Below are positions 3,381 to 24,768 of a DNA stretch of 28,503 nt, piece after piece. Under the pieces are notes generated by a model that was not told where the DNA came from, did no database searches, and saw only the letters and a list, made by a program, of their open reading frames with translations. Position 1 is the stretch's first letter, and every line of letters starts with the position of its first letter. The position numbers and the translations under genes were made by a program. Location of the stretch: the UHGV virus genome UHGV-0003692. One strand, 5' to 3'. The DNA is from a virus.

Positions 3381-3733
3381 TACGCCTCCGATGTAACAGT
3401 CGTTATTCCATAAAGAGTGTCGATTTCAGCGGAAAACATGACACGTCGGGTCGTGGTATCCACCGTCGTATTGAAAGAGAGGATTGATTTAACGCCCCGC
3501 GTTTCGAGGATGCGCTTACGGATCGCCAGGTTGTAGGTTTCCGGCTTCTGCTTACCGAGTACGGACTGGATCCACGGAGTCCCTTCGGTGGTATCGAGAA
3601 ACCATTGCCCATACCACAATTCGAATCGCGTTTTTACCGCCTGCGCCACGGCCTCCGGTGAGTTAATCAGCCAGGTGTCATCACCGCTGCCAAAGGTATA
3701 ATCGCCATCGGCGTCTTCACGTCTGTATCGCAT
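3380..3733 (-). CDS. Baseplate wedge protein (gpW/gp25-like position)
   Basis: 117-aa ORF between spike (V-like) and J-like genes, 1-nt start/stop overlaps on both sides. Confidence 0.45.
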   Translation of the reverse strand: MRYRREDADGDYTFGSGDDTWLINSPEAVAQAVKTRFELWYGQWFLDTTEGTPWIQSVLGKQKPETYNLAIRKRILETRGVKSILSFNTTVDTTTRRVMFSAEIDTLYGITTVTSEA

Positions 3734-4488
3734 CAGTTAGGCGCTCCTGTGTTACCGCCGCCGGTCTGTACTCCGCCGTGCGTGTGCGTCATCAGGCTCT
3801 TACCACCAGCTTTTACATCGTTAGTCACCGTGACAGGGCCAAGCATCGTCGCGGTGCCGCCGCTTTCGCCCATCCCCTGAGAGAGATTCCCGTTTATTGT
3901 CACGTTGCCGTTTAGCGTGATGGTGGGTGATGTGATCGTGGTTCCTCCTTCTGCTGTCGCCGTCAGCGCGCCGGGGGTTTTAACCGTGATGTTATGGCCT
4001 GCGGCAACTTCCACAAACGCAGCGCCATCATCAGTACGCAGTTGCGCGGCGCTGGTGCTGATTCCGCTGATTTTCTGCGCCTGAGACTGCGGACCGACGA
4101 TACAGAACGCATCCGATAAATCATGCATTCTGTCATCGACCGGTTCCTGTATTCCGCCGCTCTGCCACCAGAAATCAATACAACGATCGGCAAAAACAAC
4201 AAGACACTCATCCCCGGCTTTAATCGGAAACGTTAGCGTACATCCTCCGCCACGTGGGAATACCACTGGAACATCCACCAACAATGGGTAATTTTTGGTA
4301 ATGCGGTTGCCGTCATTATCCTTTTCAACCGAACGGATAGCAGGCTGCACAACCGCCGTCACCGCATCAGGATCGAATGACTGAATAATGCCAGGCAAGG
4401 CGACACGGATCTGATTCTTTGTTGTTTCCCGTTCAGATTTGAATGTTTCGGCAAGGTCGCCGCTGCGGGTCTGGTCAGATACTGCCAT
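3733..4488 (-). CDS. Baseplate spike / assembly protein V-like
   Basis: 251-aa ORF; Gly-rich C-terminus with ...MTHTHGGVQTGGGNTGAP typical of gpV-type spikes; ATG at 4488. Confidence 0.6.
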   Translation of the reverse strand: MAVSDQTRSGDLAETFKSERETTKNQIRVALPGIIQSFDPDAVTAVVQPAIRSVEKDNDGNRITKNYPLLVDVPVVFPRGGGCTLTFPIKAGDECLVVFADRCIDFWWQSGGIQEPVDDRMHDLSDAFCIVGPQSQAQKISGISTSAAQLRTDDGAAFVEVAAGHNITVKTPGALTATAEGGTTITSPTITLNGNVTINGNLSQGMGESGGTATMLGPVTVTNDVKAGGKSLMTHTHGGVQTGGGNTGAPN

Positions 4489-4507: not shown

Positions 4508-4532
4508 AAAAAACCCGCCGGGTGGCGGGTTT
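4508..4532 (-). terminator. Intrinsic terminator closing the moron cassette
   Basis: Minus strand reads AAACCCGCC-ACCC-GGCGGG followed by TTTTTT; GC-rich stem with U-tract, overlapping the stop of the upstream gene. Confidence 0.7.
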
Positions 4533-4948: not shown

Positions 4949-5521
4949 TCACATCCATTTAGGGGCGTTGGCTCCCAGCATCTTATGCGATGTTGAGATC
5001 AGTTCAATAGCCTCTTCACGGGTAACATTATCTGACAAGAGCTCAGCCTGGAAAGGCTGCGATTGCCTAACTTCAGCGGCCAACTGAGTTGCAGTGTTCT
5101 CGACGGCGGTCAACGCACGAACATATTTGCGTTTTAATGGGCGCAACATTTGCAGATGGCCTTGCCACATAGGGGACCTTTCCGCTTCAGAGAACATATC
5201 CACTAAATGTCCTTTAGCATTTCGGCATGCCTTGGCAAGACCTTCGAGATGGGATAAAAACTCTTCCGGAAGCTCATCAACAATGATTCTCCCATTTCGA
5301 AAAGCTTCGAGATGAGACATGCCTTCCTTCGCGGTATTTTCGATTTCTTGAGCGCGTGCAGCAATCGCGGTACAACGACGAAATACCTCTTCAGCATCTA
5401 ATCGTTGTGGCAGTTCACAAGCATTAGAGATCAGGGGTTTGAAAGCACCGTTAACAGCTTCCTGAACCTGATTCATTTGTTGTGTAATTGTTGCCAGCGC
5501 AAATGCGTAGCTAATCGCCAT
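4949..5521 (-). CDS. Hypothetical protein, putative partner/antitoxin of the YafO-like gene
   Basis: Track ORF begins with TTG at 5527; first ATG at 5521 is preceded by GAGGG at good spacing (190 aa from ATG). Predicted helical, no family recognised; stop is 1 nt before the downstream ATG. Confidence 0.5.
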   Translation of the reverse strand: MAISYAFALATITQQMNQVQEAVNGAFKPLISNACELPQRLDAEEVFRRCTAIAARAQEIENTAKEGMSHLEAFRNGRIIVDELPEEFLSHLEGLAKACRNAKGHLVDMFSEAERSPMWQGHLQMLRPLKRKYVRALTAVENTATQLAAEVRQSQPFQAELLSDNVTREEAIELISTSHKMLGANAPKWM

Positions 5522-5534
5522 ACCCAATCCCTCT

Positions 5535-5613: not shown

Positions 5614-5689
5614 CACCTAGCAAGCGATAAAAAATCATTATTTAGTGAATGTGAACAAACTCAACACTATGCAGAAATGTAACTTTTGG

Positions 5690-6031
5690 TTAACCATCAA
5701 CCTTTTTACACGGGAAGGAGCCGATGATTTTCGGCGCATCCATGCTGTTCTGCAGCAGTTGCACATTCAGGAATCGCGTTTCGGTACCAGGGCGACGAAT
5801 GTATTCAAACCCATAGTTGTTGCCATCTTTAGCAGGCATCAGTCCCATATCTATCTTAATGCCATCAGCACCAAGATTTGTAATTTTCTGCGATGTGACG
5901 CGCTCACCGTTAATCATGTCCATTTCACCCAACCTTGCAGTGATGGTGTAAGGCCCACAATAAGCGGTGTACCCGCTTGCTGATGCCCCAAATGACATAA
6001 AGGCAACAATTAAAATGGCTAAGGCTTTCAA
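5690..6031 (-). CDS. Small secreted protein with N-terminal signal peptide (moron)
   Basis: 113-aa ORF; N-terminus MKALAILIVAFMSFGASA then SG (signal-peptidase I-like). Start is TTG at 6031, preceded by GGGGG ribosome-binding site; no in-frame ATG preserves the signal peptide. Begins 2 nt after the upstream baseplate gene. Confidence 0.5.
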   Translation of the reverse strand: MKALAILIVAFMSFGASASGYTAYCGPYTITARLGEMDMINGERVTSQKITNLGADGIKIDMGLMPAKDGNNYGFEYIRRPGTETRFLNVQLLQNSMDAPKIIGSFPCKKVDG

Positions 6032-6033
6032 AT

Positions 6034-7095
6034 TTACCCCCGATTAAGCGAGTCCTGCGTGCGGAGATCCGCCGCGCCACGCGCTTCGCACATCATATCC
6101 ATGTACCACGCCTGGCCCCTTGTGTCGCCAGTGTACATAATCCCGCGCACAATATAAACGCCATCCGTTGCGATGCTGGCAGGCTGCGCCGTGGTGCCGC
6201 TGAGCGTGATATTTCCGTCTGTGTTCTGGTCGGTGATCTGCCCACCAGCCATCGCGATATCATTGTTCGACAGCGCGGTGCGGTACACGGAAGCCTGATC
6301 CAGCTGAATAAGCCCGTTAACCCGGATGTTCGGATTAATAAGAGCGCGGACGTTTACGCCGTTACCGATAGTCTGCTGCGGCATGCCGATAAGCCCGGTG
6401 GCGCTGTTGAGCACAATCGCGTCGTGAACATACTCGTTATTCGCCACCATCTGGCGCTGACCGTCCACAAATTGCCATGTTGCGCCACATTGTCCGGCCA
6501 CGTTATCCATAAGATGCCGTGTCATGCCGAACAGCACCCGCCCTCGAGGGTATACGGTAGCAGGCATTTCAGGCGTCAGTCCTTCGGTCGCGCCTTTGGC
6601 CTCAAAGTCTTTCATCAGCGCACGGTTCACATCTGCGACTGTGTAACCGGCAGCCAGCGTCTGTGAGGTTATACTGGTGGCAAATGCCAGATCAGTATCT
6701 GCTGCCTGAATCAGGACGTAGGTATCAACCGGACTGTCTTTTCCTGTGACCGAGTAGCGAATTTCTCCGCTGAAAATCAGCCCGTAGTTGCGGCCATCAC
6801 TCTGGCCCACGTCCGCCGCGTCAACTTCCCGCACAGTCCCGACGTCGCTTGCTGCCACCTCCGGCGCGATACCGTCGTAACCGGCAATCAGCCGCACTTT
6901 CGAAAACTCCTGCCCGGTAATTCGGTTCACAGTATCTGCCGAAAGGTTATAAATTTTGATAGTCCCTACCCGGGACGCGCTGCTGATGTTGAACCAGTCG
7001 ATCGTAAAGGTGACTTTGAAATCACTTAGCTCAATTCCCTTACCGTTCCCGTCCACAAGCTGCAGCTCGAAATGTCTCATCCAGTTCTGTGACAT
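6034..7095 (-). CDS. Baseplate hub / tail protein (P2 gpD / Mu gp44-like position)
   Basis: 353-aa ORF downstream of tape measure and two small tail genes; ATG at 7095; assignment by synteny and size. Confidence 0.45.
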   Translation of the reverse strand: MSQNWMRHFELQLVDGNGKGIELSDFKVTFTIDWFNISSASRVGTIKIYNLSADTVNRITGQEFSKVRLIAGYDGIAPEVAASDVGTVREVDAADVGQSDGRNYGLIFSGEIRYSVTGKDSPVDTYVLIQAADTDLAFATSITSQTLAAGYTVADVNRALMKDFEAKGATEGLTPEMPATVYPRGRVLFGMTRHLMDNVAGQCGATWQFVDGQRQMVANNEYVHDAIVLNSATGLIGMPQQTIGNGVNVRALINPNIRVNGLIQLDQASVYRTALSNNDIAMAGGQITDQNTDGNITLSGTTAQPASIATDGVYIVRGIMYTGDTRGQAWYMDMMCEARGAADLRTQDSLNRG

Positions 7096-7400: not shown

Positions 7401-7987
7401 TAGCCGCCTCCCAGTAATGACGCCACGTTACCAGTGATGCTTTTCAGCAGTGAAGTATCTGGAGGCTTTGTGGTTTTGTTGCCGCTGTTCTGTAGCGCCG
7501 ACGTGCTGGCCCCTTCCTTCATGTTGGTTTTATCCGCGACGGTGATCTGCTGTGTCCGGGAGATAAGGACCTCCCTCAGGGTGAGGACGGCGGACAGGAC
7601 GTTTTCGGTTGTCTTGTCCGTCGTCACTTCCAGCGCCCGGATCAACATGTTGCTGTACAGTCGTTTACCGGTTACCACATCGAAGGGGATACGGCTTTCC
7701 TGCAGATCCAGTAGCTCCTGATACGTCTGCTGAGGACTCAGGACGAGCAGGCTGGTAGCCGTCAGATTACTGGCAAAATCCAGCAATGCGCCGCCACCGG
7801 CGAAACCAACCTCCATCACCACTTCTGACGGTTTTTTATAGGCATGATCAGCGACAGCGGCCCCAACCTCTACCGGATGCTCTGTTATTTCAAGCATATC
7901 TGTATGCTTCTCTGAAATAACAACACTGGGAACAATCATTCCTATTTTTCTGCTCTGCTGATGAAAAAGTGTAGAGAGAATATCCAC
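7400..7987 (-). CDS. Tail protein (post-tape-measure, gpU-like position)
   Basis: 195-aa ORF; start is GTG at 7987 overlapping the tape-measure TAG stop, with purine-rich ribosome-binding site GGTGAGGGTGGG upstream. Confidence 0.4.
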   Translation of the reverse strand: MDILSTLFHQQSRKIGMIVPSVVISEKHTDMLEITEHPVEVGAAVADHAYKKPSEVVMEVGFAGGGALLDFASNLTATSLLVLSPQQTYQELLDLQESRIPFDVVTGKRLYSNMLIRALEVTTDKTTENVLSAVLTLREVLISRTQQITVADKTNMKEGASTSALQNSGNKTTKPPDTSLLKSITGNVASLLGGG

Positions 7988-9975
7988 TAACCCACCCTCA
8001 CCTGATTACTTCGCATGACCTGAGCATTTGCAGACTGTTGCCGACGTGCAACCTCATTACCGACAGCGTGCGGGTCTCCGCCACCGTAAATGTGGTAGGT
8101 ATTTTGCTGGTTAACCTCTGTCACTTTGCCACTAATTCCCGCCACGGCAGCCTTATTAATCAGCTCTCGAGAATAGATATTTCTTCCATTCTCATGCTGG
8201 ATAATGCTGCTCATCAATGCTGACATGGTTTGCGGATCGCTCATATTCAGGGCAGCCCGGGGATCCACTCCCAGTCGTTGCGATACAGCCCTGATATACG
8301 CAGTTGTGTTGTTATTATCAGACGCAGGTGCCCAGGTAGAGATAATTTTCTCCACGCTGTTTATTCCACGTCCGGCGTACAGCATTAACTGACGAGCAAG
8401 AGCCCGTAATCCATCAAAAGCAGTTTCAAATCTGGCAAATCGCCCGCCCGGGCGTTCAAGAGAAGCCCCTGCCTGACCAGCAAAATTAAGGTTTCCCGGA
8501 TTGTTATTCCGTTCTCCTCGTTTCGTAGCCTGTGCATATTGTTCCGGCTCATCATCACCAAACCAGCCGCGTACCGTCCGGCCCACGCTGCGAGGATCGA
8601 ATCCCCAGTGCTCTTTAATCCAGTCGGCAGTACTGTTAGCGCTGTCTGTAACCATCGGCATCGCTGACGGATTTTCGCTGCCCTGATTAAGTATCTGTTT
8701 GCTGATGCTGACTGCATCAGCCCAGCGGCCATCTTTGATAGCGTTGAGCAGGTCGGCGATCATGTTCAGCATTTTGCTGAATTCGCCCATCTGGTCGATG
8801 AAGTTGCTGAAATCCCACTTCAGGGACCATGATTTGGGGTCAATATTGAGCAGTTTCGCCAGCGCTTTCGCCAGTTCATTAACAGACCCTTTCAGGTCAC
8901 GAACCATCTTCAGCGCGGCATCGACCTCCGGCTTCCACTTGCCCCAGTCAATCAGGCTGTCGCCGCCTTCCTTCCAGGTCTGATAGTCCTCCCACAGAAG
9001 GGCAATCCCCGCCGCCAGCGCGGTAATGAGGCCAATCGGCGACATCCAGAACGTACTGTTTAGAATGCGCAGCGCAATCGTCAGCGCGCCAAACAGCGAG
9101 ATGAGCTCCCGCGTTTGCTTATCCAGCGATTGCCACCAGGTGATAAGGCTGGATGTTCCCTCAATTAGCCTGAAGAACAGCCGCCCGATGATGTCTCCGA
9201 TCGCCAGAATGCCTTTTATGGCTTTCGTCAGGGTCTGCTCGATACGAGGGAAGTTGTCCAGGATATGGCGGCGCAGGGTGTCCAGCGAACCAGCAAGCCC
9301 ACCCGCAAGATTAGAGCCGATTTTGTCACGGGCCATGCCTGCCATCGCGCCGAACTCGCGCAGGGAGGTCATGAATTTGTTGGAGCTTCTGGCCGCCTCG
9401 TCAGCATTGAAACCGATAGCTTTCGCCATTGCGCTGTACTGCCCGGAGAAACCACCCACACCCCGGCGCATCGCCATAAGGGTATTTTCGTCAATGCCCA
9501 GCATCTGCGCATACTGGTTAGCCCGGTAATACGGCATGCCGCTGAGCTTCTGGCCTACACCCGTAAAAATAGCGGCCATGTCACGCATGTTACCGCTGGC
9601 ATCACGGGTCTGTACGCCCAGGCGATTCAGAAAGCCTTCTGCACCGGGATTGTTACGAATAAACCGGGAGAGGCTTTCCAGAGAAGATCGCGCAGCGTCA
9701 ACACTGCCGCCAACCTGCGAAACCGCATAGCCAATAGACTGAATCCCCTGGACTGTCGCGCCGGTGCGCTGTGACGCCCGGTAGAGATTATCCAGACCGG
9801 AGGCGATCTTAGCCGTGAAGGCCACCACGGACAGCGCAGCTCCTTCAACAGCCAGCCCCATTTTGATGACATTTGCAGTTGTACCGGCGAGGACAGAACC
9901 GAACTTTTTCGCTCCTGCATCATCCACATTGAAGCCAAGCGAGACGAGGAAATCTTTAATAGTTTCAGCGTTCAT
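7987..9975 (-). CDS. Tail tape measure protein
   Basis: Largest ORF of the tail module, immediately after the chaperone; Ala/Gly/Leu-rich helical N-terminal part. ATG at 9975 (MNAETIKDF) preceded by GGAGAGAGG; the track's earlier start at 9996 lacks a ribosome-binding site. Confidence 0.7.
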   Translation of the reverse strand: MNAETIKDFLVSLGFNVDDAGAKKFGSVLAGTTANVIKMGLAVEGAALSVVAFTAKIASGLDNLYRASQRTGATVQGIQSIGYAVSQVGGSVDAARSSLESLSRFIRNNPGAEGFLNRLGVQTRDASGNMRDMAAIFTGVGQKLSGMPYYRANQYAQMLGIDENTLMAMRRGVGGFSGQYSAMAKAIGFNADEAARSSNKFMTSLREFGAMAGMARDKIGSNLAGGLAGSLDTLRRHILDNFPRIEQTLTKAIKGILAIGDIIGRLFFRLIEGTSSLITWWQSLDKQTRELISLFGALTIALRILNSTFWMSPIGLITALAAGIALLWEDYQTWKEGGDSLIDWGKWKPEVDAALKMVRDLKGSVNELAKALAKLLNIDPKSWSLKWDFSNFIDQMGEFSKMLNMIADLLNAIKDGRWADAVSISKQILNQGSENPSAMPMVTDSANSTADWIKEHWGFDPRSVGRTVRGWFGDDEPEQYAQATKRGERNNNPGNLNFAGQAGASLERPGGRFARFETAFDGLRALARQLMLYAGRGINSVEKIISTWAPASDNNNTTAYIRAVSQRLGVDPRAALNMSDPQTMSALMSSIIQHENGRNIYSRELINKAAVAGISGKVTEVNQQNTYHIYGGGDPHAVGNEVARRQQSANAQVMRSNQVRVG

Positions 9976-10605
9976 TATCCTCTCTCCATTTCTCAATGCG
10001 CCGCTGGTTATCCGCTTTTACCGCCAGATGGTCATTCAAGAGAGCAATGTCGTACAAATCGACAGAGCCATCTTTAAGTGCTGTATAAGGAATTAACCCG
10101 GCGTCAACCGGATTGAGAAGGTAAGACAGCCCGTCCGGCAGGCTGTTAAACGTCAGCCCTGTTGCAGGCTCTGCGTCGTGCTGGTAAGGGGTGTAGGCAA
10201 AAAATTTCCCAGCGAATCGGCGACCACCCGCGCCACCAGATGCAGCATGACCAGCAAGTCAATATCATCAAACATCAGTTCGCCCCGGGTAAATACCGGA
10301 ACCCATCCGTCCATATGACGCCGCGATACCACCGCAAGACAGGGATGAATAATCGCACTGGTGTCATCTTCTGTCAGGGAAGACAGTTCCTCAGCGATAC
10401 GCGGGAGCATGGTTTCAAACACCGGTTTTAACTGCTCGAATTTCACGGTGTCGATTTTGCCATCAGCAGGCAAACGGGAGCGAATGCTCCCGAAATCTGA
10501 CATCATTCCTGCCAGCACCGGCAGAAGTTTGCGGGTCACTTTCAGCTGATCAAAAACGCTGAGTTTTGCCGCGCGATATTTCACGCCTTTGATTTCGAAT
10601 TCCAT
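9965..10605 (-). CDS. Tail assembly chaperone -1 frameshift product (lambda G/GT-like)
   Basis: Near the 3' end of the chaperone gene the minus strand reads CTG-GGA-AAT-TTT-TTG (slippery G_GGA_AAT, complement of plus 10204-10210). The -1 frame is open from there for about 80 codons and ends at TGA 9965-9967, just inside the tape-measure start. Confidence 0.45.
10153..10605 (-). CDS. Tail assembly chaperone
   Basis: 150-aa ORF between tail tube and tape measure genes; ATG at 10605. Confidence 0.55.
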   Translation of the reverse strand: MEFEIKGVKYRAAKLSVFDQLKVTRKLLPVLAGMMSDFGSIRSRLPADGKIDTVKFEQLKPVFETMLPRIAEELSSLTEDDTSAIIHPCLAVVSRRHMDGWVPVFTRGELMFDDIDLLVMLHLVARVVADSLGNFLPTPLTSTTQSLQQG

Positions 10606-12772: not shown

Positions 12773-13136
12773 CAAACGGCATCAACTCACAATGCGCCTG
12801 AACGAATCCGGCCCCATAAGCTGTATACGGGTCGACGAAGGTCACACGATAATCACGGCCCTGATACGTCACGATATCGGCATCACGGCCAGTCTGTCCC
12901 TGCGTCAGTCGCTCAGTCGTCACAATCAGAATTGCACCGCTGATTACCTGCCCTGCCTGCATACGGCGGTTTTCCAGAGAGCGATCAACAGTTACGACTC
13001 CGGCAAACTGCTTTTTAACTTCGCTGTCGCTGCCGATCCCGTCCTCATCCACCGTTTGCACTCGGCGTGTTACCCACAAATTGAAGTCGCAAAAATCGGG
13101 GTCAAAAAGCACATCTGTTACATCAAGAGTCGGCAT
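12747..13136 (-). CDS. Phage structural protein (head-tail joining region)
   Basis: 129-aa ORF, ATG at 13136, overlapping neighbours by 14-26 nt; same operon and strand. Confidence 0.4.
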   Translation of the reverse strand: MPTLDVTDVLFDPDFCDFNLWVTRRVQTVDEDGIGSDSEVKKQFAGVVTVDRSLENRRMQAGQVISGAILIVTTERLTQGQTGRDADIVTYQGRDYRVTFVDPYTAYGAGFVQAHCELMPFDGGTPVEQ

Positions 13137-13677
13137 TTTTATCCCTCACAACATGGGTAATCGCTCTGCGATATTGCCCGGTGTCGATTAGCGGTTTCAC
13201 CAGATCGGTTCCAGGAGACTCACCAGCAGCTCGCCGCGCAAGTTCCGCTTTTGCCCCTTTGCGCCCTCGACGTGCACGGGCTTCAACAGTGCTGTCAGCA
13301 AGCGGCGTAAAGCCGGTAATAGTCATGTAACGCCTGACGCCATTAGCGGCCAGCGTTCCGGCTCGGTTGAGCGCTCTTTCCGCCCCCGCCGCATTTCCAT
13401 CAAGCGCAGCCTGCGCCGCTGCTTTGAGCTGCGGCACTGTCTGTCCCTCTACCGATTTAACGCCGGGGGTCAGGTGCGGGCGTGGGGGGATGTTTTGCGC
13501 TGGCGAGCCGTATTCGTTGACGTAACCGATCCCGGCATTACCAAACGGAACATCCTCACGCTCGCTGTCTGCTTCCGGGATACCCACCAGCACTTCTTTT
13601 TTACTGATGGATTTGAGCGCATCCAGAATGGCCTGAGCGTTATCCACCCTCGTTGTTACACCGCTTTTGAAACTCAT
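13123..13677 (-). CDS. Phage structural protein (head-tail joining region)
   Basis: 184-aa ORF with ATGA start/stop overlap with the upstream gene at 13674-13677. Confidence 0.4.
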
Positions 13678-14081
13678 AGCTGGCGACCGCCCGCACCGAA
13701 CATCGTGATCAGCTGATAAAATTCAGCGCCATATCGGGTGTTATTCCAGAAGCCTGCGTCATGGTTTAGCGTCGCGCTGGTGTCATAGCTGACGCTTACC
13801 TTGTCAACAGACTTAGAGGATTGAACACCATTGGTTGAACCGCCCGGGCCGCCAACCAGCATTGCCCGACTATCTGCCGCCCATAGCGTCATGTAGTGAG
13901 CCACGAACAACCCGGCAAAGTACGGAAACAACTTTTTGCCGGTGACGTTTTCGCTCAGCAGTTCATCGGCCAGATTCAGACGAAACTGGATTTGCGCTTC
14001 GGGATATTTGGCAGGGTCAGCAAACTGCGGGAAGTCGCGGCGAAAATCACTTACCGCTGGCAGACTTTGATTCTTTGGCAT
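13674..14081 (-). CDS. Head-tail adaptor-like protein
   Basis: 135-aa ORF shortly downstream of the major capsid gene; ATG at 14081. Confidence 0.4.
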
Positions 14082-17779: not shown

Positions 17780-19097
17780 TCTCTATGTCCTCGTCGGTAA
17801 TGGATGCCCCGATGCCGGTTACGTCAGAATTTTCGCGCAAATCGGTCATAGCGGCTTTCAGTGTCATCAGACCATCACCCAGCGCCGTACTGATTGCGTT
17901 GGTAGTGTTTAACGCCACCGTTGAGCGATCGACATCAGACATTTGCCAGAGCGGGTTAAACTCAAACGTGAAATCGTCCGGCAGCGGCTTACCGAGTTCC
18001 GAGCGGTGCATAATGTCCAGTATCCGGCGCATCGGCAGCCGTAAGCGGCGCTCCTGCAATGAGCTCACCCGGTCGTAATAGTTGGCGAGGTCTGCGTCAC
18101 CAGTAGAGAAGCCTTTCGGGGATTGACCGAACAGTCGCACCAGCGGGATACCAACGGCACCGCTGATCTGCTCAGCGAACTGCGAAAGAATGTCATCCAG
18201 ACCGCTGAAGCTGTACTGGTGGGTTTCGAACTTATCCCGCGAGTCCATGAGCGTCATGCCTTCATTGCTCTGGAACTGGCGGATCAGGTCGATGTTCTTC
18301 AGCAGCGCTTCATACGCAGGACCACCAAGTGCGATAAGCTCGCGTAGCTTCTCCACGCTGTAGGTACGCAAATGCGCTTTGTAGACCAGCTGCGCCGCGC
18401 CGACAGTGGCGCTGTCGAACGCAGTAAGCCGATCCCAGATACGCTCTACAACCGACATTCCCCATTCGTTTTCGGTCATCTTCTGCTGGAATGGCAGCGT
18501 CACCCCGTCGAAGCGAATCAGGCGACTGTGATGGATGCGCCAGGCTGGAATGCCCGTGGCAGTGGTCACCACATCGTAAAACTCAGGTTTGCCGAGATCC
18601 GGCCCCATCTCTTTAATGCGGCGGGTCAGCACCGGGTTAATCATCCAGCGGTCGAGCGGGAGAATGCCCTTAAACTTGCCTTCTCCAATGGTTTCGAGCC
18701 GCAGCGGGGTCATTGGTGCCTGCCCCTCGATCATGATGAAGCCGACCGCGCCGCCGTAGAGGCGCGACCATTTCAGCACGTCGTTCAGCGCATCCCAGAT
18801 CTGCAACTCATCCAGTTGTGATTCGAGAATGCCGCGATCTTTTGCATCAATTTCCGAAGTGATGCGAATGCCTTTGCGGGTCATATCATCCGGGATAGCG
18901 TCGACCGCTTCGCCGATGATCCAGGACGAACGATAGGACCATTCCACCAGCATGCGGTTGCGGCTGGTGAAGTTAGCCCGGTAGGTCGATGCTGAGTGTT
19001 GGTTAGGCGTCTGCATCCCCACGCGGGCGACAAAGTTCTCATAGCCATCAGCGGTGGCCTGTGCCGTTCGCCGCGTGGCTTGTTTGTTTCGTGCCAT
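17631..19097 (-). CDS. Portal protein
   Basis: 488-aa ORF immediately downstream of the large terminase gene; ATG at 19097 shares one nucleotide with the terminase stop; acidic C-terminus. Confidence 0.65.
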   Translation of the reverse strand: MARNKQATRRTAQATADGYENFVARVGMQTPNQHSASTYRANFTSRNRMLVEWSYRSSWIIGEAVDAIPDDMTRKGIRITSEIDAKDRGILESQLDELQIWDALNDVLKWSRLYGGAVGFIMIEGQAPMTPLRLETIGEGKFKGILPLDRWMINPVLTRRIKEMGPDLGKPEFYDVVTTATGIPAWRIHHSRLIRFDGVTLPFQQKMTENEWGMSVVERIWDRLTAFDSATVGAAQLVYKAHLRTYSVEKLRELIALGGPAYEALLKNIDLIRQFQSNEGMTLMDSRDKFETHQYSFSGLDDILSQFAEQISGAVGIPLVRLFGQSPKGFSTGDADLANYYDRVSSLQERRLRLPMRRILDIMHRSELGKPLPDDFTFEFNPLWQMSDVDRSTVALNTTNAISTALGDGLMTLKAAMTDLRENSDVTGIGASITDEDIENAEDEAPPGIGELGDKPPESPGGDPISNEPTADSAGGRGYRKWSLRWFK

Positions 19098-22532: not shown

Positions 22533-22970
22533 TTATTTCAGGCATTGCGTCCTGATGTATTCCTGCAGGTAGTTAACCTGCGCGGTTATCTTGTCGATTC
22601 CACTTCGGAGACGGTAATAATTGAGTTCAGCATCTGCTGTAAGTCCTGGGCTTTCTCCATCGCCCATGCCGCTGGCTCCGGTCGTTGACTTTGCACAGGT
22701 GGCGGCGACTTGCAGGCGCTTACGCCCAGCAGAAACATCATCACGGAGACTTTCGATAGTCGCGTTAGCATCAGCAAGCTCCTTTGTATATCTGGCATCG
22801 AGTTCTGCTACATCACGTTGACGCTTCTGCATGTCAGCGATAATGAATGCGGCCTTATCGCGCTGTTCTTTGTAGGTCATGGCGTTATCACGGTAATGAT
22901 TAACAGCCCATGACAGGCAGACGATGATGCAGATAATCAGAGCGGAAATAATCGCGGTGACTCTGCTCAT
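22533..22970 (-). CDS. Rz: Spanin inner-membrane subunit Rz (i-spanin)
   Basis: 145-aa ORF; N-terminal 30 residues ([30 protein letters not shown]) nearly identical to lambda Rz as recalled; ATGA overlap with the endolysin stop. Confidence 0.8.
22586..22771 (-). CDS. Rz1: Spanin outer-membrane lipoprotein Rz1 (o-spanin), embedded in Rz in +1 frame
   Basis: ORF nested inside Rz; from the internal Met gives signal [19 protein letters not shown] followed by Cys (lipobox VSAC) and a Pro-rich mature part. Start among three in-frame Met codons is uncertain. Confidence 0.6.
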
Positions 22971-23443
22971 ACCTCAATCTCTCTGACCGTTCCGCCAGCC
23001 TCTTTGAATTTTGCAATCAGGCTGTCAACCTTATGCTCGAACTGACCATAACCAGCGCCCGGCAGTGAAGCCCAGATATTGCTGCAACGGTCGATTGCCT
23101 GACGGATATCACCGCGATCAATCATCGGCAAAGCGCCACGCTCCTTAATCTGCTGCAATGCAACAGCATCCTGGCTTTTCGGAGAGAAGTCTTTCAGGCC
23201 AAGCTGCTTACGATAGGCATCCCACCAACGGGAAAGAAGCTGGTAACGTCCGGCTGCCGTTGATTTGAGTTTTGGGTTTAGCGTGACAAGTTTGCGAGGG
23301 TGATCGGAGTAATCAGTGAATAGCTCTCCGCCAACAATGACGTCATAACCATGATTTCTGGTTTTTTGACGTCCGTTATCAGTTCCCTCTGACCACGCCA
23401 GCATATCGAGGAACGCCTTACGTTGATTATTGATTTCCACCAT
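22967..23443 (-). CDS. R: Endolysin R (lytic transglycosylase, lambda R-like)
   Basis: 158-aa ORF; translation almost identical to lambda R as recalled ([39 protein letters not shown]...). Confidence 0.9.
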
Positions 23444-23750
23444 CTTCTACTCCGGCTTTTTTAGCAGCGAAGCGTTTGATAAGCGAACCAATCGAGTCAG
23501 TACCGATGTAGCCGATGAACACGCTCGTTATATAAGCGAGATTGCTACTTAGTCCGGCGAAGTCGAGAAGGTCACGAATGAACCAGGCGATAATGGCGCA
23601 CATCGTTGCGTCGATTACTGTTTTTGTAAACGCACCGCCATTATATCTGCCGCGAAGGTACGCCATTGCAAACGCAAGGATTGCCCCGATGCCTTGTTCC
23701 TTTGCCGCGAGAATGGCGGCTAACAGGTCATGTTTTTCTGGCATCTTCAT
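23427..23750 (-). CDS. S: Holin S (lambda S107/S105 dual-start holin/antiholin)
   Basis: 107-aa ORF beginning Met-Lys-Met (ATG at 23750 and 23744), essentially identical to lambda S as recalled. Confidence 0.9.
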
Positions 23751-24249: not shown

Positions 24250-24768
24250 CTAAATGGCTAATTGCATGTCAAGGCTTTTAACAGCAACATGCTTAACTTT
24301 CTCAACACGTTTACGCATTTTGAAAGCGTTTTGCATTGGCTGGTACAAAACAAATAACGACGCTTTCAGGATGTCGTCAATTTCGTTTCTACAGGTTGCC
24401 AGTGAAGGTTTTCTCCATCCCTCACCACCACGTCCACACATCTTGCGTGGCTTTGCAGTCGCGTGATAGTAGGATGCAATTGCTCGCTTAGATGAACCAT
24501 GAGCGTAGTAGCTGAGGAGGATGCCAAAGGCTTTCTTGTCAATGTACATGACGGAATCGACGACCTGAGAAATCAACATTCCATCATCATCATTGCACAT
24601 TGGCCTTGTCATAACTCTTCCCGGCTCTACGCTCTCCATGAACTTCGCTATTACGCTGCTCATGCGCTTTTCCAGACGACCTGAATAAACCCATGCGCCC
24701 CACAGTTCAAGCCAGCCATTCAGCCACTCGTGCTGCTCTTTGGTGAGGTTTAGTTCTCTTATGCCCAC
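24250..24768 (-). CDS. Q: Late-gene antiterminator Q (phage 82/21-type family)
   Basis: 172-aa ORF upstream of the lysis cassette; shares LE.WGAW and RP.C.DDD motifs with 82/21-type Q proteins as recalled. Start is GTG at 24768 with GGGAGAAGG ribosome-binding site; first in-frame ATG would delete the conserved N-terminus. Confidence 0.6.

Follow-up and report, generated by a model that had tools for sequence, protein, structure and literature searches.

The subject of this analysis is a small gene in the virus genome UHGV-0003692, of which one stretch of 28,503 nt is referred to here as the window. The gene encodes a precursor of 113 amino acids (aa) and directly follows the baseplate hub gene of a contractile tail module. 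Judged from the sequence, its product is almost certainly exported to the periplasm. The coordinates of the gene and of the features around it are collected in Table 1. As an earlier note on this DNA had claimed, the start lies 2 nt past the hub gene: the hub stop codon TAA occupies positions 6036-6034 and is separated from the TTG start by AT, with the minus-strand junction reading ...AAT CGG GGG TAA AT TTG AAA GCC... The note had also described TTG, preceded by a GGGGG run, as the only start which keeps the signal peptide, and this agrees with the coordinates and the flanking codons. An in-frame stop is found 5 codons upstream of TTG, none of the intervening codons can initiate, and the next start is an ATG at codon 12, the use of which would remove the n-region and most of the hydrophobic core. 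Therefore, TTG is the sole start that retains the signal peptide. The G+C content of the gene is 0.462, against 0.557 for the hub gene and 0.544 for the spike gene.

Table 1. Positions of the exported-protein gene, its parts and the features around it in the window
Feature	Position	Strand	Basis or remark
Exported-protein precursor gene, 113 aa	5690..6031	(-)	TTG start 6031-6029, TGA stop 5692-5690; open reading frame call
Part coding for the predicted signal peptide, residues 1-18, MKALAILIVAFMSFGASA	5978..6031	(-)	Rule-based analysis of n-, h- and c-regions; predicted cleavage after ASA
Mature 95-aa domain, predicted 8-stranded beta-barrel	5693..5977	(-)	AlphaFold2 model; cysteines in first and last strands
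GGGGG Shine-Dalgarno-like run	6037..6041	(-)	5 nt upstream of TTG, overlapping the last hub codons
Baseplate hub gene, 353 aa	6034..7095	(-)	phrog_196 'baseplate hub', E-value 1.9e-89; match to PF22759 E217_GP41 under the gathering cut-off
Candidate sigma-70 promoter TTTATA-17-TACACT	6130..6158	(-)	8 of 12 matches; within the hub coding sequence, about 100 nt upstream of TTG
Promoter-like site TTGAGT-16-AATAAT	5637..5664	(-)	Between the genes for the exported protein and the 192-aa protein
Cargo: 192-aa protein	4949..5527	(-)	phrog_35514; no Pfam family
Cargo: YafO-family toxin, 138 aa	4531..4947	(-)	PF13957, E-value 4e-17; directly downstream of the 192-aa gene
Intrinsic terminator, hairpin AAACCCGCC-ACCC-GGCGGGTTT and T-run	4511..4532	(-)	Closes the variable cassette downstream, some 20 nt ahead of the spike gene
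Baseplate spike gene	3733..4488	(-)	N-terminal spike domain PF18352, E-value 2e-44, and Apex motif PF18946; conserved tail module resumes

The signal peptide was judged by explicit rules for its n-, h- and c-regions and not by a trained predictor, and the family-wide counts refer to 145 full-length representatives. The precursor begins with MKALAILIVAFMSFGASA, after which the mature part would start as SGYTAYCG. Its n-region carries a single lysine (K2) and is followed by a 12-residue hydrophobic core (ALAILIVAFMSF) with Kyte-Doolittle values up to 3.2, while Ala-Ser-Ala occupies positions -3 to -1 ahead of S19, giving a predicted cut after Ala18. A hydrophobic core, an n- and h-region free of acidic residues and a C-terminal cysteine are common to all 145 representatives; an AXA-like (Ala-Xaa-Ala) site is seen in 144 and a positive n-region in 135 of them. 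The N-termini of the alleles differ in sequence yet retain signal-peptide properties (MRGIIFLLAVFSACSVWA, MKRLCLALVMMVTAPAMA, VKLVIFTIAALFSFQAIA and others). Cys25 (5957-5959) and Cys108 (5708-5710) are the only cysteines of the mature part and are invariant across the family. The cleavable signal peptide and the two mature cysteines described earlier are thus borne out by the rules and by the family alignment. The lipobox motif [LVI][ASTVI][GAS]C was not found in the window protein, in which the first cysteine lies 7 residues beyond the predicted cleavage site.

To place the gene among its relatives, two sets of loci were compared. The first comprises 87 loci, of which 80 are viral contigs with a hub at least 96% identical to that of the window and the rest are phage records and one Escherichia coli genome. 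In the second, made up of 45 contigs, hub identity to a Salmonella hub is 61-97%. A protein with predicted export is encoded directly behind the hub in all 132 loci. In the first set this protein belongs to the same family as the window protein (PHROG 3443) in 75 of 87 loci, in at least seven N-terminal variants, and is another exported protein in the remaining 12; empty slots were not found. The 12 loci lacking the family carry either a 241-aa lipoprotein or a secreted protein annotated with 153-180 aa, the likelier start of which would give about 154 aa. In the second set, where all 45 slots are likewise filled with exported proteins, the occupants are members of the family, a lipoprotein of 289-290 aa that ends in the family domain, lipoproteins of 214 and 239 aa, secreted proteins of 154-183 aa and an 80-aa secreted peptide rich in Cys and Thr. 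The alternative slot proteins gave no match in Pfam, and a comparison of two of these proteins with PHROGs yielded one marginal match only. In the lipoboxes of the slot proteins the +2 residue is never Asp. According to the usual sorting rule, lipoproteins without Asp at +2 go to the outer membrane, which suggests that the slot lipoproteins are located there.

The start codon lies 2 nt past the hub stop or overlaps it in nearly all loci, and TTG or GTG starts are frequent among the slot genes. Homologs are found directly behind the hub in phages SEN34, Mulock, YP3, vB_EcoM-683R1 and ST340-VIM1phi10.1, in Omnitron (by an open reading frame (ORF) reading of the unannotated record) and in Salmonella, Yersinia and Photorhabdus prophages. 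Between hub and spike, nothing but the family gene is encoded in Yersinia and Salmonella prophages and in some of those from E. coli. A Photorhabdus prophage remnant which lacks the hub and the upstream tail genes retains an intact family gene (locus L091, 5001-5354) beside the spike and sheath-initiator genes. Based on these comparisons, the variable hub-spike cassette of SEN34-like temperate myoviruses of Enterobacterales usually opens with a gene of this family. The earlier note had called the gene a moron. The low G+C content and the terminator described below fit this term; sporadic presence, which also belongs to it, does not apply to a gene seen in most loci of the first set and replaced by other exported proteins in the rest, with every slot of the second set filled. 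Unlike a sporadic moron, the gene is a near-universal, replaceable and always-exported occupant of a fixed slot.

The position among baseplate genes might also be taken to indicate a cytoplasmic baseplate assembly factor or minor virion protein that is not exported, its hydrophobic N-terminus serving as a membrane-inserting or protein-protein segment. In this context it can be mentioned that gp42 of the related E217-type baseplate, encoded between hub and tip, goes unmentioned among the virion components in a cryogenic electron microscopy study. Against such a role, export is indicated by the AXA site, by the shortness of the core (12 residues), by the two invariant cysteines and by those alternative slot proteins which bear a lipobox, and we regard this reading as very improbable. 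E217 gp42 itself was rejected as an equivalent of the slot protein, as it is unrelated and has no hydrophobic N-terminus or signal peptide.

The window protein matches PHROG 3443 over its full length (E-value 2.5e-46; residues 2-112 against positions 2-114 of a profile of 115). Homologous clusters at 90% identity numbered 393 by protein search and 700 by profile search, and all named clusters are from Enterobacterales, namely Escherichia, Salmonella, Klebsiella, Raoultella, Kluyvera, Yersinia, Serratia, Photorhabdus and Pantoea. At 50% identity about 30 genuine clusters are left, and the family is therefore narrow. Long repeat proteins (4267, 5298, 1524 aa and others) also appeared in the search of the 50%-identity library through many short scoring stretches and were judged to be composition artefacts. 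Among close alleles, the variable sites at codon positions 1, 2 and 3 number 4, 2 and 19. Because of this third-position bias, the PHROG match and the 700 homologous clusters, the window ORF is a real gene under purifying selection. The frame is thus conserved; a lack of such conservation had been named in the earlier note as what would speak against the gene. An antisense ORF of 112 codons at 5645..5983 (+) shows 19, 2 and 3 variable sites in its own frame and was rejected as spurious and non-coding.

The NCBI name 'STY1065/STY2022 family phage-derived protein' is carried by WP_062810240.1 of E. coli TUM1880, which is encoded at the same position and is about 73% identical to the window protein (judged from the near-identical cluster P0111). 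Even at an E-value of 10, neither the window protein nor three of its homologs matched any NCBIfam hidden Markov model (HMM), and the name probably comes from a rule outside the HMM library. Pfam, NCBIfam and PADLOC returned nothing for the window protein, and PADLOC-DB gave no match for it or for its two downstream neighbours. A literature search on STY1065/STY2022, PHROG 3443 and the carrier phages SEN34 and Mulock found no functional study. The gene is therefore a member of an already catalogued family of unassigned function.

Start codons across the loci were taken from per-locus listings; an automated tally was discarded, as it picked upstream codons out of context. The allele of the window starts with TTG in 8 loci, the window included, and with GTG in 8 loci, and the GGGGG context is identical in every copy of both kinds. 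In E. coli E2348/69, a copy of this allele starts with GTG and is annotated by NCBI over the full 113 codons. Other alleles have ATG or GTG at the equivalent position. Of the 187 representatives in the database, 42 (examples are the clusters P0025, P0030 and P0038) have an internal ATG as their annotated start, which removes the signal peptide, and SEN34_20 (locus L001, 4109-4342) is likewise annotated from an internal position, as a 77-aa product. Gene callers shorten the family gene in this way, and the signal peptide is then missing from public annotations. In locus L073 (on the same contig as locus L156), what appears to be a frameshift has shortened the gene to 87 codons and altered the C-terminal sequence, which shows that the gene can decay.

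Next, the mature part was modelled with AlphaFold2 from a 55-sequence alignment. The model is confident and all-beta, with a predicted local distance difference test (pLDDT) of 89.5 and a predicted template modelling score (pTM) of 0.79, and contains seven strands of at least 3 residues as well as short bridges. Since the two cysteines sit in the first and last strands, a Cys25-Cys108 disulfide closing the predicted barrel is plausible. Foldseek searches against the PDB and viral models returned nothing at an E-value of 0.001 or lower; the best viral match was a 113-aa "lipoprotein" of Serratia phage Scapp (E-value 6e-3), and sequence identity to the top-ranked structural chains was 5-14%. The likeness to avidins, to PliC/MliC lysozyme inhibitors and to the Cap15 barrel is that of any small 8-stranded meander barrel and is not evidence for a common function. 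For PliC/MliC, membership of the Pfam MliC family and a specific fold match were looked for, and neither was found. The modelled fold is generic and gives no function. Sequence variation is concentrated in the first half of the domain, where the mean entropy is 1.37 bits (mature residues 1-45) versus 0.77 bits in the second half (residues 46-95). Between two common E. coli allele types, identity amounts to 62% over the first half and 98% over the second.

The borders of the variable cassette are sharp. Homology between loci ends about 30-55 nt ahead of the hub stop (about 6065-6088 in the window) and resumes exactly at the hairpin and T-run, 4532->4511. Of 120 related loci, which come from several genera, all except one have a strong terminator-like hairpin, and its stem variants preserve pairing (GGCCGC/GTGGCC, GCCCAC/GTGGGT, ACCTGC/GCAGGT and AGCCGC/GCGGCT); examples are found at 4926-4947 in L017, 5370-5391 in L218 and 5501-5518 in L089. 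Where extra cargo is absent, the terminator lies immediately 3' of the family gene, and in the window the YafO pair intervenes. As this terminator sits in the middle of the tail operon, late read-through is required, presumably by Q-modified polymerase.

The two cargo genes of the window, encoding the 192-aa protein and the YafO-family toxin, are found as the same pair in the same cassette of Photorhabdus prophages. No family match identifies the 192-aa protein as an antitoxin, should this be its role. The spacer that holds the promoter-like site ahead of the pair is 162 nt long and AT-rich (G+C 0.364), and it is this adjacent pair, with a promoter-like site of its own, that has the form of a classic moron. 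The cargo is linked to the 3' end of the family gene in several respects. At the C-terminal end of the family protein, two to four residues co-vary with the downstream cargo and not with the N-terminal type, and the 3' half of the gene (5690..5860) is nearly identical between alleles with differing 5' halves. Where the gene has given way to that of the 154-aa protein, 51 nt of the family 3' end are left (L041, 5035-5085). Because the C-terminal residues travel with the cargo and this remnant is retained, the conserved 3' half appears to act as a recombination joint for cassette shuffling. The hub-spike junction is thus a cargo hotspot with sharp conserved borders, a property that can be exploited in mining for toxin-antitoxin and defence genes.

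In the animal host, the bacterium profits from lambda Bor and Lom, and the protein of the window might similarly be a host-fitness or lysogenic-conversion factor, that is, a periplasmic binder of a small molecule or host-derived factor without any part in phage-phage conflict. Its fold class is shared with ligand-binding barrels (avidins, fatty-acid-binding proteins and lipocalin-like proteins), the low G+C content and the terminator give it a moron-like layout, the gene is retained in the decayed Photorhabdus remnant without a hub, and it is present in pathogens such as the enteropathogenic E. coli (EPEC) E2348/69. We nevertheless consider this explanation unlikely. No Pfam avidin, lipocalin or Ail/Lom match was obtained, unrelated secreted proteins or lipoproteins can replace the gene in its slot, and a near-universal tie to one tail module, in hosts whose lifestyles differ greatly (E. 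coli, Klebsiella, Yersinia, Photorhabdus and Pantoea), is better suited to a phage-centred role.

The window as a whole is a lambda-like late region that lies wholly on the minus strand. In order, it carries genes for NinB, a methylase, RusA, a NinI-like phosphatase and the Q antiterminator (24250..24768), followed by holin, endolysin and Rz (22533..23750) and by the terminase and head genes. The contractile tail module then runs from sheath, tube, chaperone, tape measure, Dit-like protein, plug and hub to the cassette and continues past it with spike, sheath initiator, J, wedge, fibre and fibre chaperone. A role of the exported protein as a lysis gene was rejected, as a separate and complete holin-endolysin-Rz cassette is present. 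In two loci, about 4-5 kb of extra DNA lies between tail genes that are adjacent elsewhere (L109, with J at 12858-14048 and wedge at 18959, and L157, with the fibre at 18980). The exported-protein gene is presumed to be part of the Q-dependent late operon. Late co-transcription with the tail genes, as proposed in the earlier note, is a reasonable expectation, because the gene belongs to one late operon with all genes on the same strand, in which a lambda-like Q and the lysis and head genes lie upstream of it.

The last 180 or so codons of the tape measure gene (7987..9996, minus strand) encode a domain homologous to the endolysin 7q47_A (E-value 1e-13), which also matches Gp29 of entry 9vvp (E-value 2e-20). 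By this homology the end of the tape measure is a tail-tip wall-cutting (muralytic) domain, at residues 490-630 or so, one that Pfam did not detect. An inhibitor in the periplasm that acts on the tail-tip wall-cutting domain of incoming phages, like T4 Spackle or PliC/MliC, is conceivable given such a domain; the resemblance of the window protein to inhibitors of this kind is of the generic sort described above, and this explanation is regarded as improbable.

No intergenic promoter was found for the exported-protein gene. Within the final 200 nt of the hub gene, TTTATA-17-TACACT is the best sigma-70-like match, and the motif occurs at the same place in 136 of 137 loci, often with the better TATACT. 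It overlaps the conserved hub peptide GVYIV..I.YTG, which explains part of its conservation. A synonymous-site test was carried out over the whole hub gene, using 59 sequences at least 4% diverged. The 85 degenerate hub codons with an invariant residue have a median codon entropy of 1.2 bits, and 2 of them show no codon variation, one being the Tyr codon TAT inside the -35-like hexamer. The final T of the -10-like hexamer is also invariant, even where Thr (ACT) changes to Ser (AGT), while nearby Thr sites use all four codons. Over a stretch of 78 nt, these two are the only invariant degenerate third positions. Across hubs down to 61% identity, the synonymous bases of the motif do not vary. This indicates nucleotide-level constraint on two hexamers 17 nt apart, most simply read as an embedded candidate promoter. 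Such a promoter and the conserved terminator would form a complete transcription unit, and the gene may then be expressed in the lysogen. A motif kept by synonymous-site selection within a structural gene is also a testable case of overlapping coding and regulatory information.

These observations bear on whether the protein acts purely late, as a periplasmic helper that masks debris or receptors against virion loss or conditions the envelope before lysis. The start at or over the hub stop in nearly all loci, the place within the Q-dependent late operon and the common use of weak TTG and GTG starts are in line with such a helper, as is a slot that always holds an exported protein, from which the phage itself would seem to profit. 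In contrast, the terminator, being conserved, and the promoter-like motif, being constrained, point to expression outside the late programme, a complete holin-endolysin-Rz cassette is already present, a frameshifted copy exists in L073, and the covariation with the fibre tip that a receptor-masking factor would be expected to show was not found (see below). A purely late helper is thus rather unlikely.

The role that we tentatively favour, without considering it established, is that of an accessory protein which acts at the level of the envelope in phage exclusion or progeny protection. The precursor would be exported by Sec and cut by signal peptidase I after Ala18, and the mature part would fold in the periplasm into a soluble 8-stranded beta-barrel of 95 residues, probably with the Cys25-Cys108 disulfide. 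Expression would probably be late, through the Q-dependent operon and coupling to the hub stop, and the weak promoter in the 3' end of the hub gene may add expression in the lysogen, with transcripts stopping at the terminator before the spike gene. The protein would then bind a periplasmic or outer-membrane component or the incoming tail tip, and this binding might hinder the entry of superinfecting phages, spare progeny from loss on cell debris, or both. Such a protective role is proposed because export is strictly maintained, a disulfide is probable, the N-terminal half is variable, probable outer-membrane lipoproteins can act as substitutes, the composition is moron-like, and a candidate promoter and a terminator are present, and also because phage exclusion by exported proteins from coliphage structural clusters is documented (PMC11893012, PMC9586334). 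The variable N-terminal half and the unrelated secreted or lipoprotein replacements fit an arms race and not a structural role.

The slot type was also compared with the types of the other tail proteins. The association with tape-measure, Dit-like, plug, spike, J and wedge types was weak (adjusted mutual information at most 0.13), as was that with the sheath-initiator types. For the fibre tip, the association was likewise not robust, with a permutation z of only 2.2 and 42 fibre types in 58 loci. Single fibre-tip clusters occur with several slot types: F12 with S2 and S4, F1 with S1 and S4, and F3 with S1 and S2. Since the allele type does not track the fibre type, a blocker matched to the phage's own receptor-binding protein, in the style of T5 Llp, is disfavoured.

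Several points weigh against the proposed exclusion or protection role. This covariation search of tail-protein types against slot type reveals no matched phage partner, and no homolog of known function, PADLOC defence model, paper or experiment ties the family to exclusion. Export is predicted from sequence rules. The -35-like hexamer is a poor consensus match and the invariant T is non-consensus, and the constraint may reflect a cause other than a promoter. It is also possible that expression is purely late, as a start 2 nt past the hub stop permits, and exclusion in the lysogen would then not apply.

A more specific version can be formulated, which we consider doubtful. The hub-spike junction would be a self-contained cassette, reaching from the embedded promoter to the terminator, of which the obligatory first product is exported. 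The PHROG 3443 barrels would form a new family of periplasmic proteins and would block a step of contractile-tail entry that does not depend on the receptor, such as wall crossing or inner-membrane passage; the hypervariable N-terminal half would be shaped by phage conflict and the 3' half would serve as the joint for shuffling of toxin or defence cargo. If envelope-level exclusion is the true role, the family and its unrelated replacements would form a widespread and easily recognised class of phage-exclusion proteins. Their occurrence in prophages of E. coli, Salmonella, Klebsiella and Yersinia would also bear on the failure of therapeutic phages on lysogens.

Among the known systems, Cor of phi80, N15 and T1 is an exclusion lipoprotein of siphoviruses that is tied to an outer-membrane receptor. 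T4 Spackle (Sp), a signal-peptide protein of about 100 aa from a virulent phage, is a periplasmic inhibitor of the gp5 tail lysozyme and is helical. The window protein resembles Spackle in size and in its signal peptide and differs in its all-beta model; like T4, the phage of the window carries a tail-tip muralytic domain, here in the tape measure.

As for the lambdoid morons (HK97 gp15, lambda lom and bor; PMC3594210), these share with the window gene the insertion in the late operon, the lower G+C content and the terminator that follows. They are sporadic and have intergenic promoters, whereas the window gene is near-universal, has no upstream intergenic space and has its candidate promoter in the hub coding sequence. 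Temperate coliphages also encode exported lipoproteins within their structural gene clusters, and expression of these lipoproteins leads to exclusion of cognate phages (PMC11893012); T5 Llp has the same effect (PMC9586334). The coliphage lipoproteins in question, the Lpp proteins of mEpimmI phages, exclude phages when expressed on their own and resemble the family in that they come from structural clusters of temperate Enterobacterales phages and fall into several sequence types. They are, however, siphovirus lipoproteins tied to particular outer-membrane receptors, whereas the window protein is predicted to be a soluble periplasmic barrel of a myovirus. Prophage exclusion proteins can also protect progeny (bioRxiv 10.1101/2024.03.05.583538), and both exclusion and progeny protection were proposed for T5 Llp, a lipoprotein that blocks FhuA (PMC9586334). 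Llp and the window protein are both small, exported, encoded beside tail-tip genes and present throughout their lineage. Llp is a lipoprotein paired with the gene of the receptor-binding protein and has no sequence or fold match to the window protein, which is without a lipobox and belongs to a family in which the allele does not track the fibre tip.

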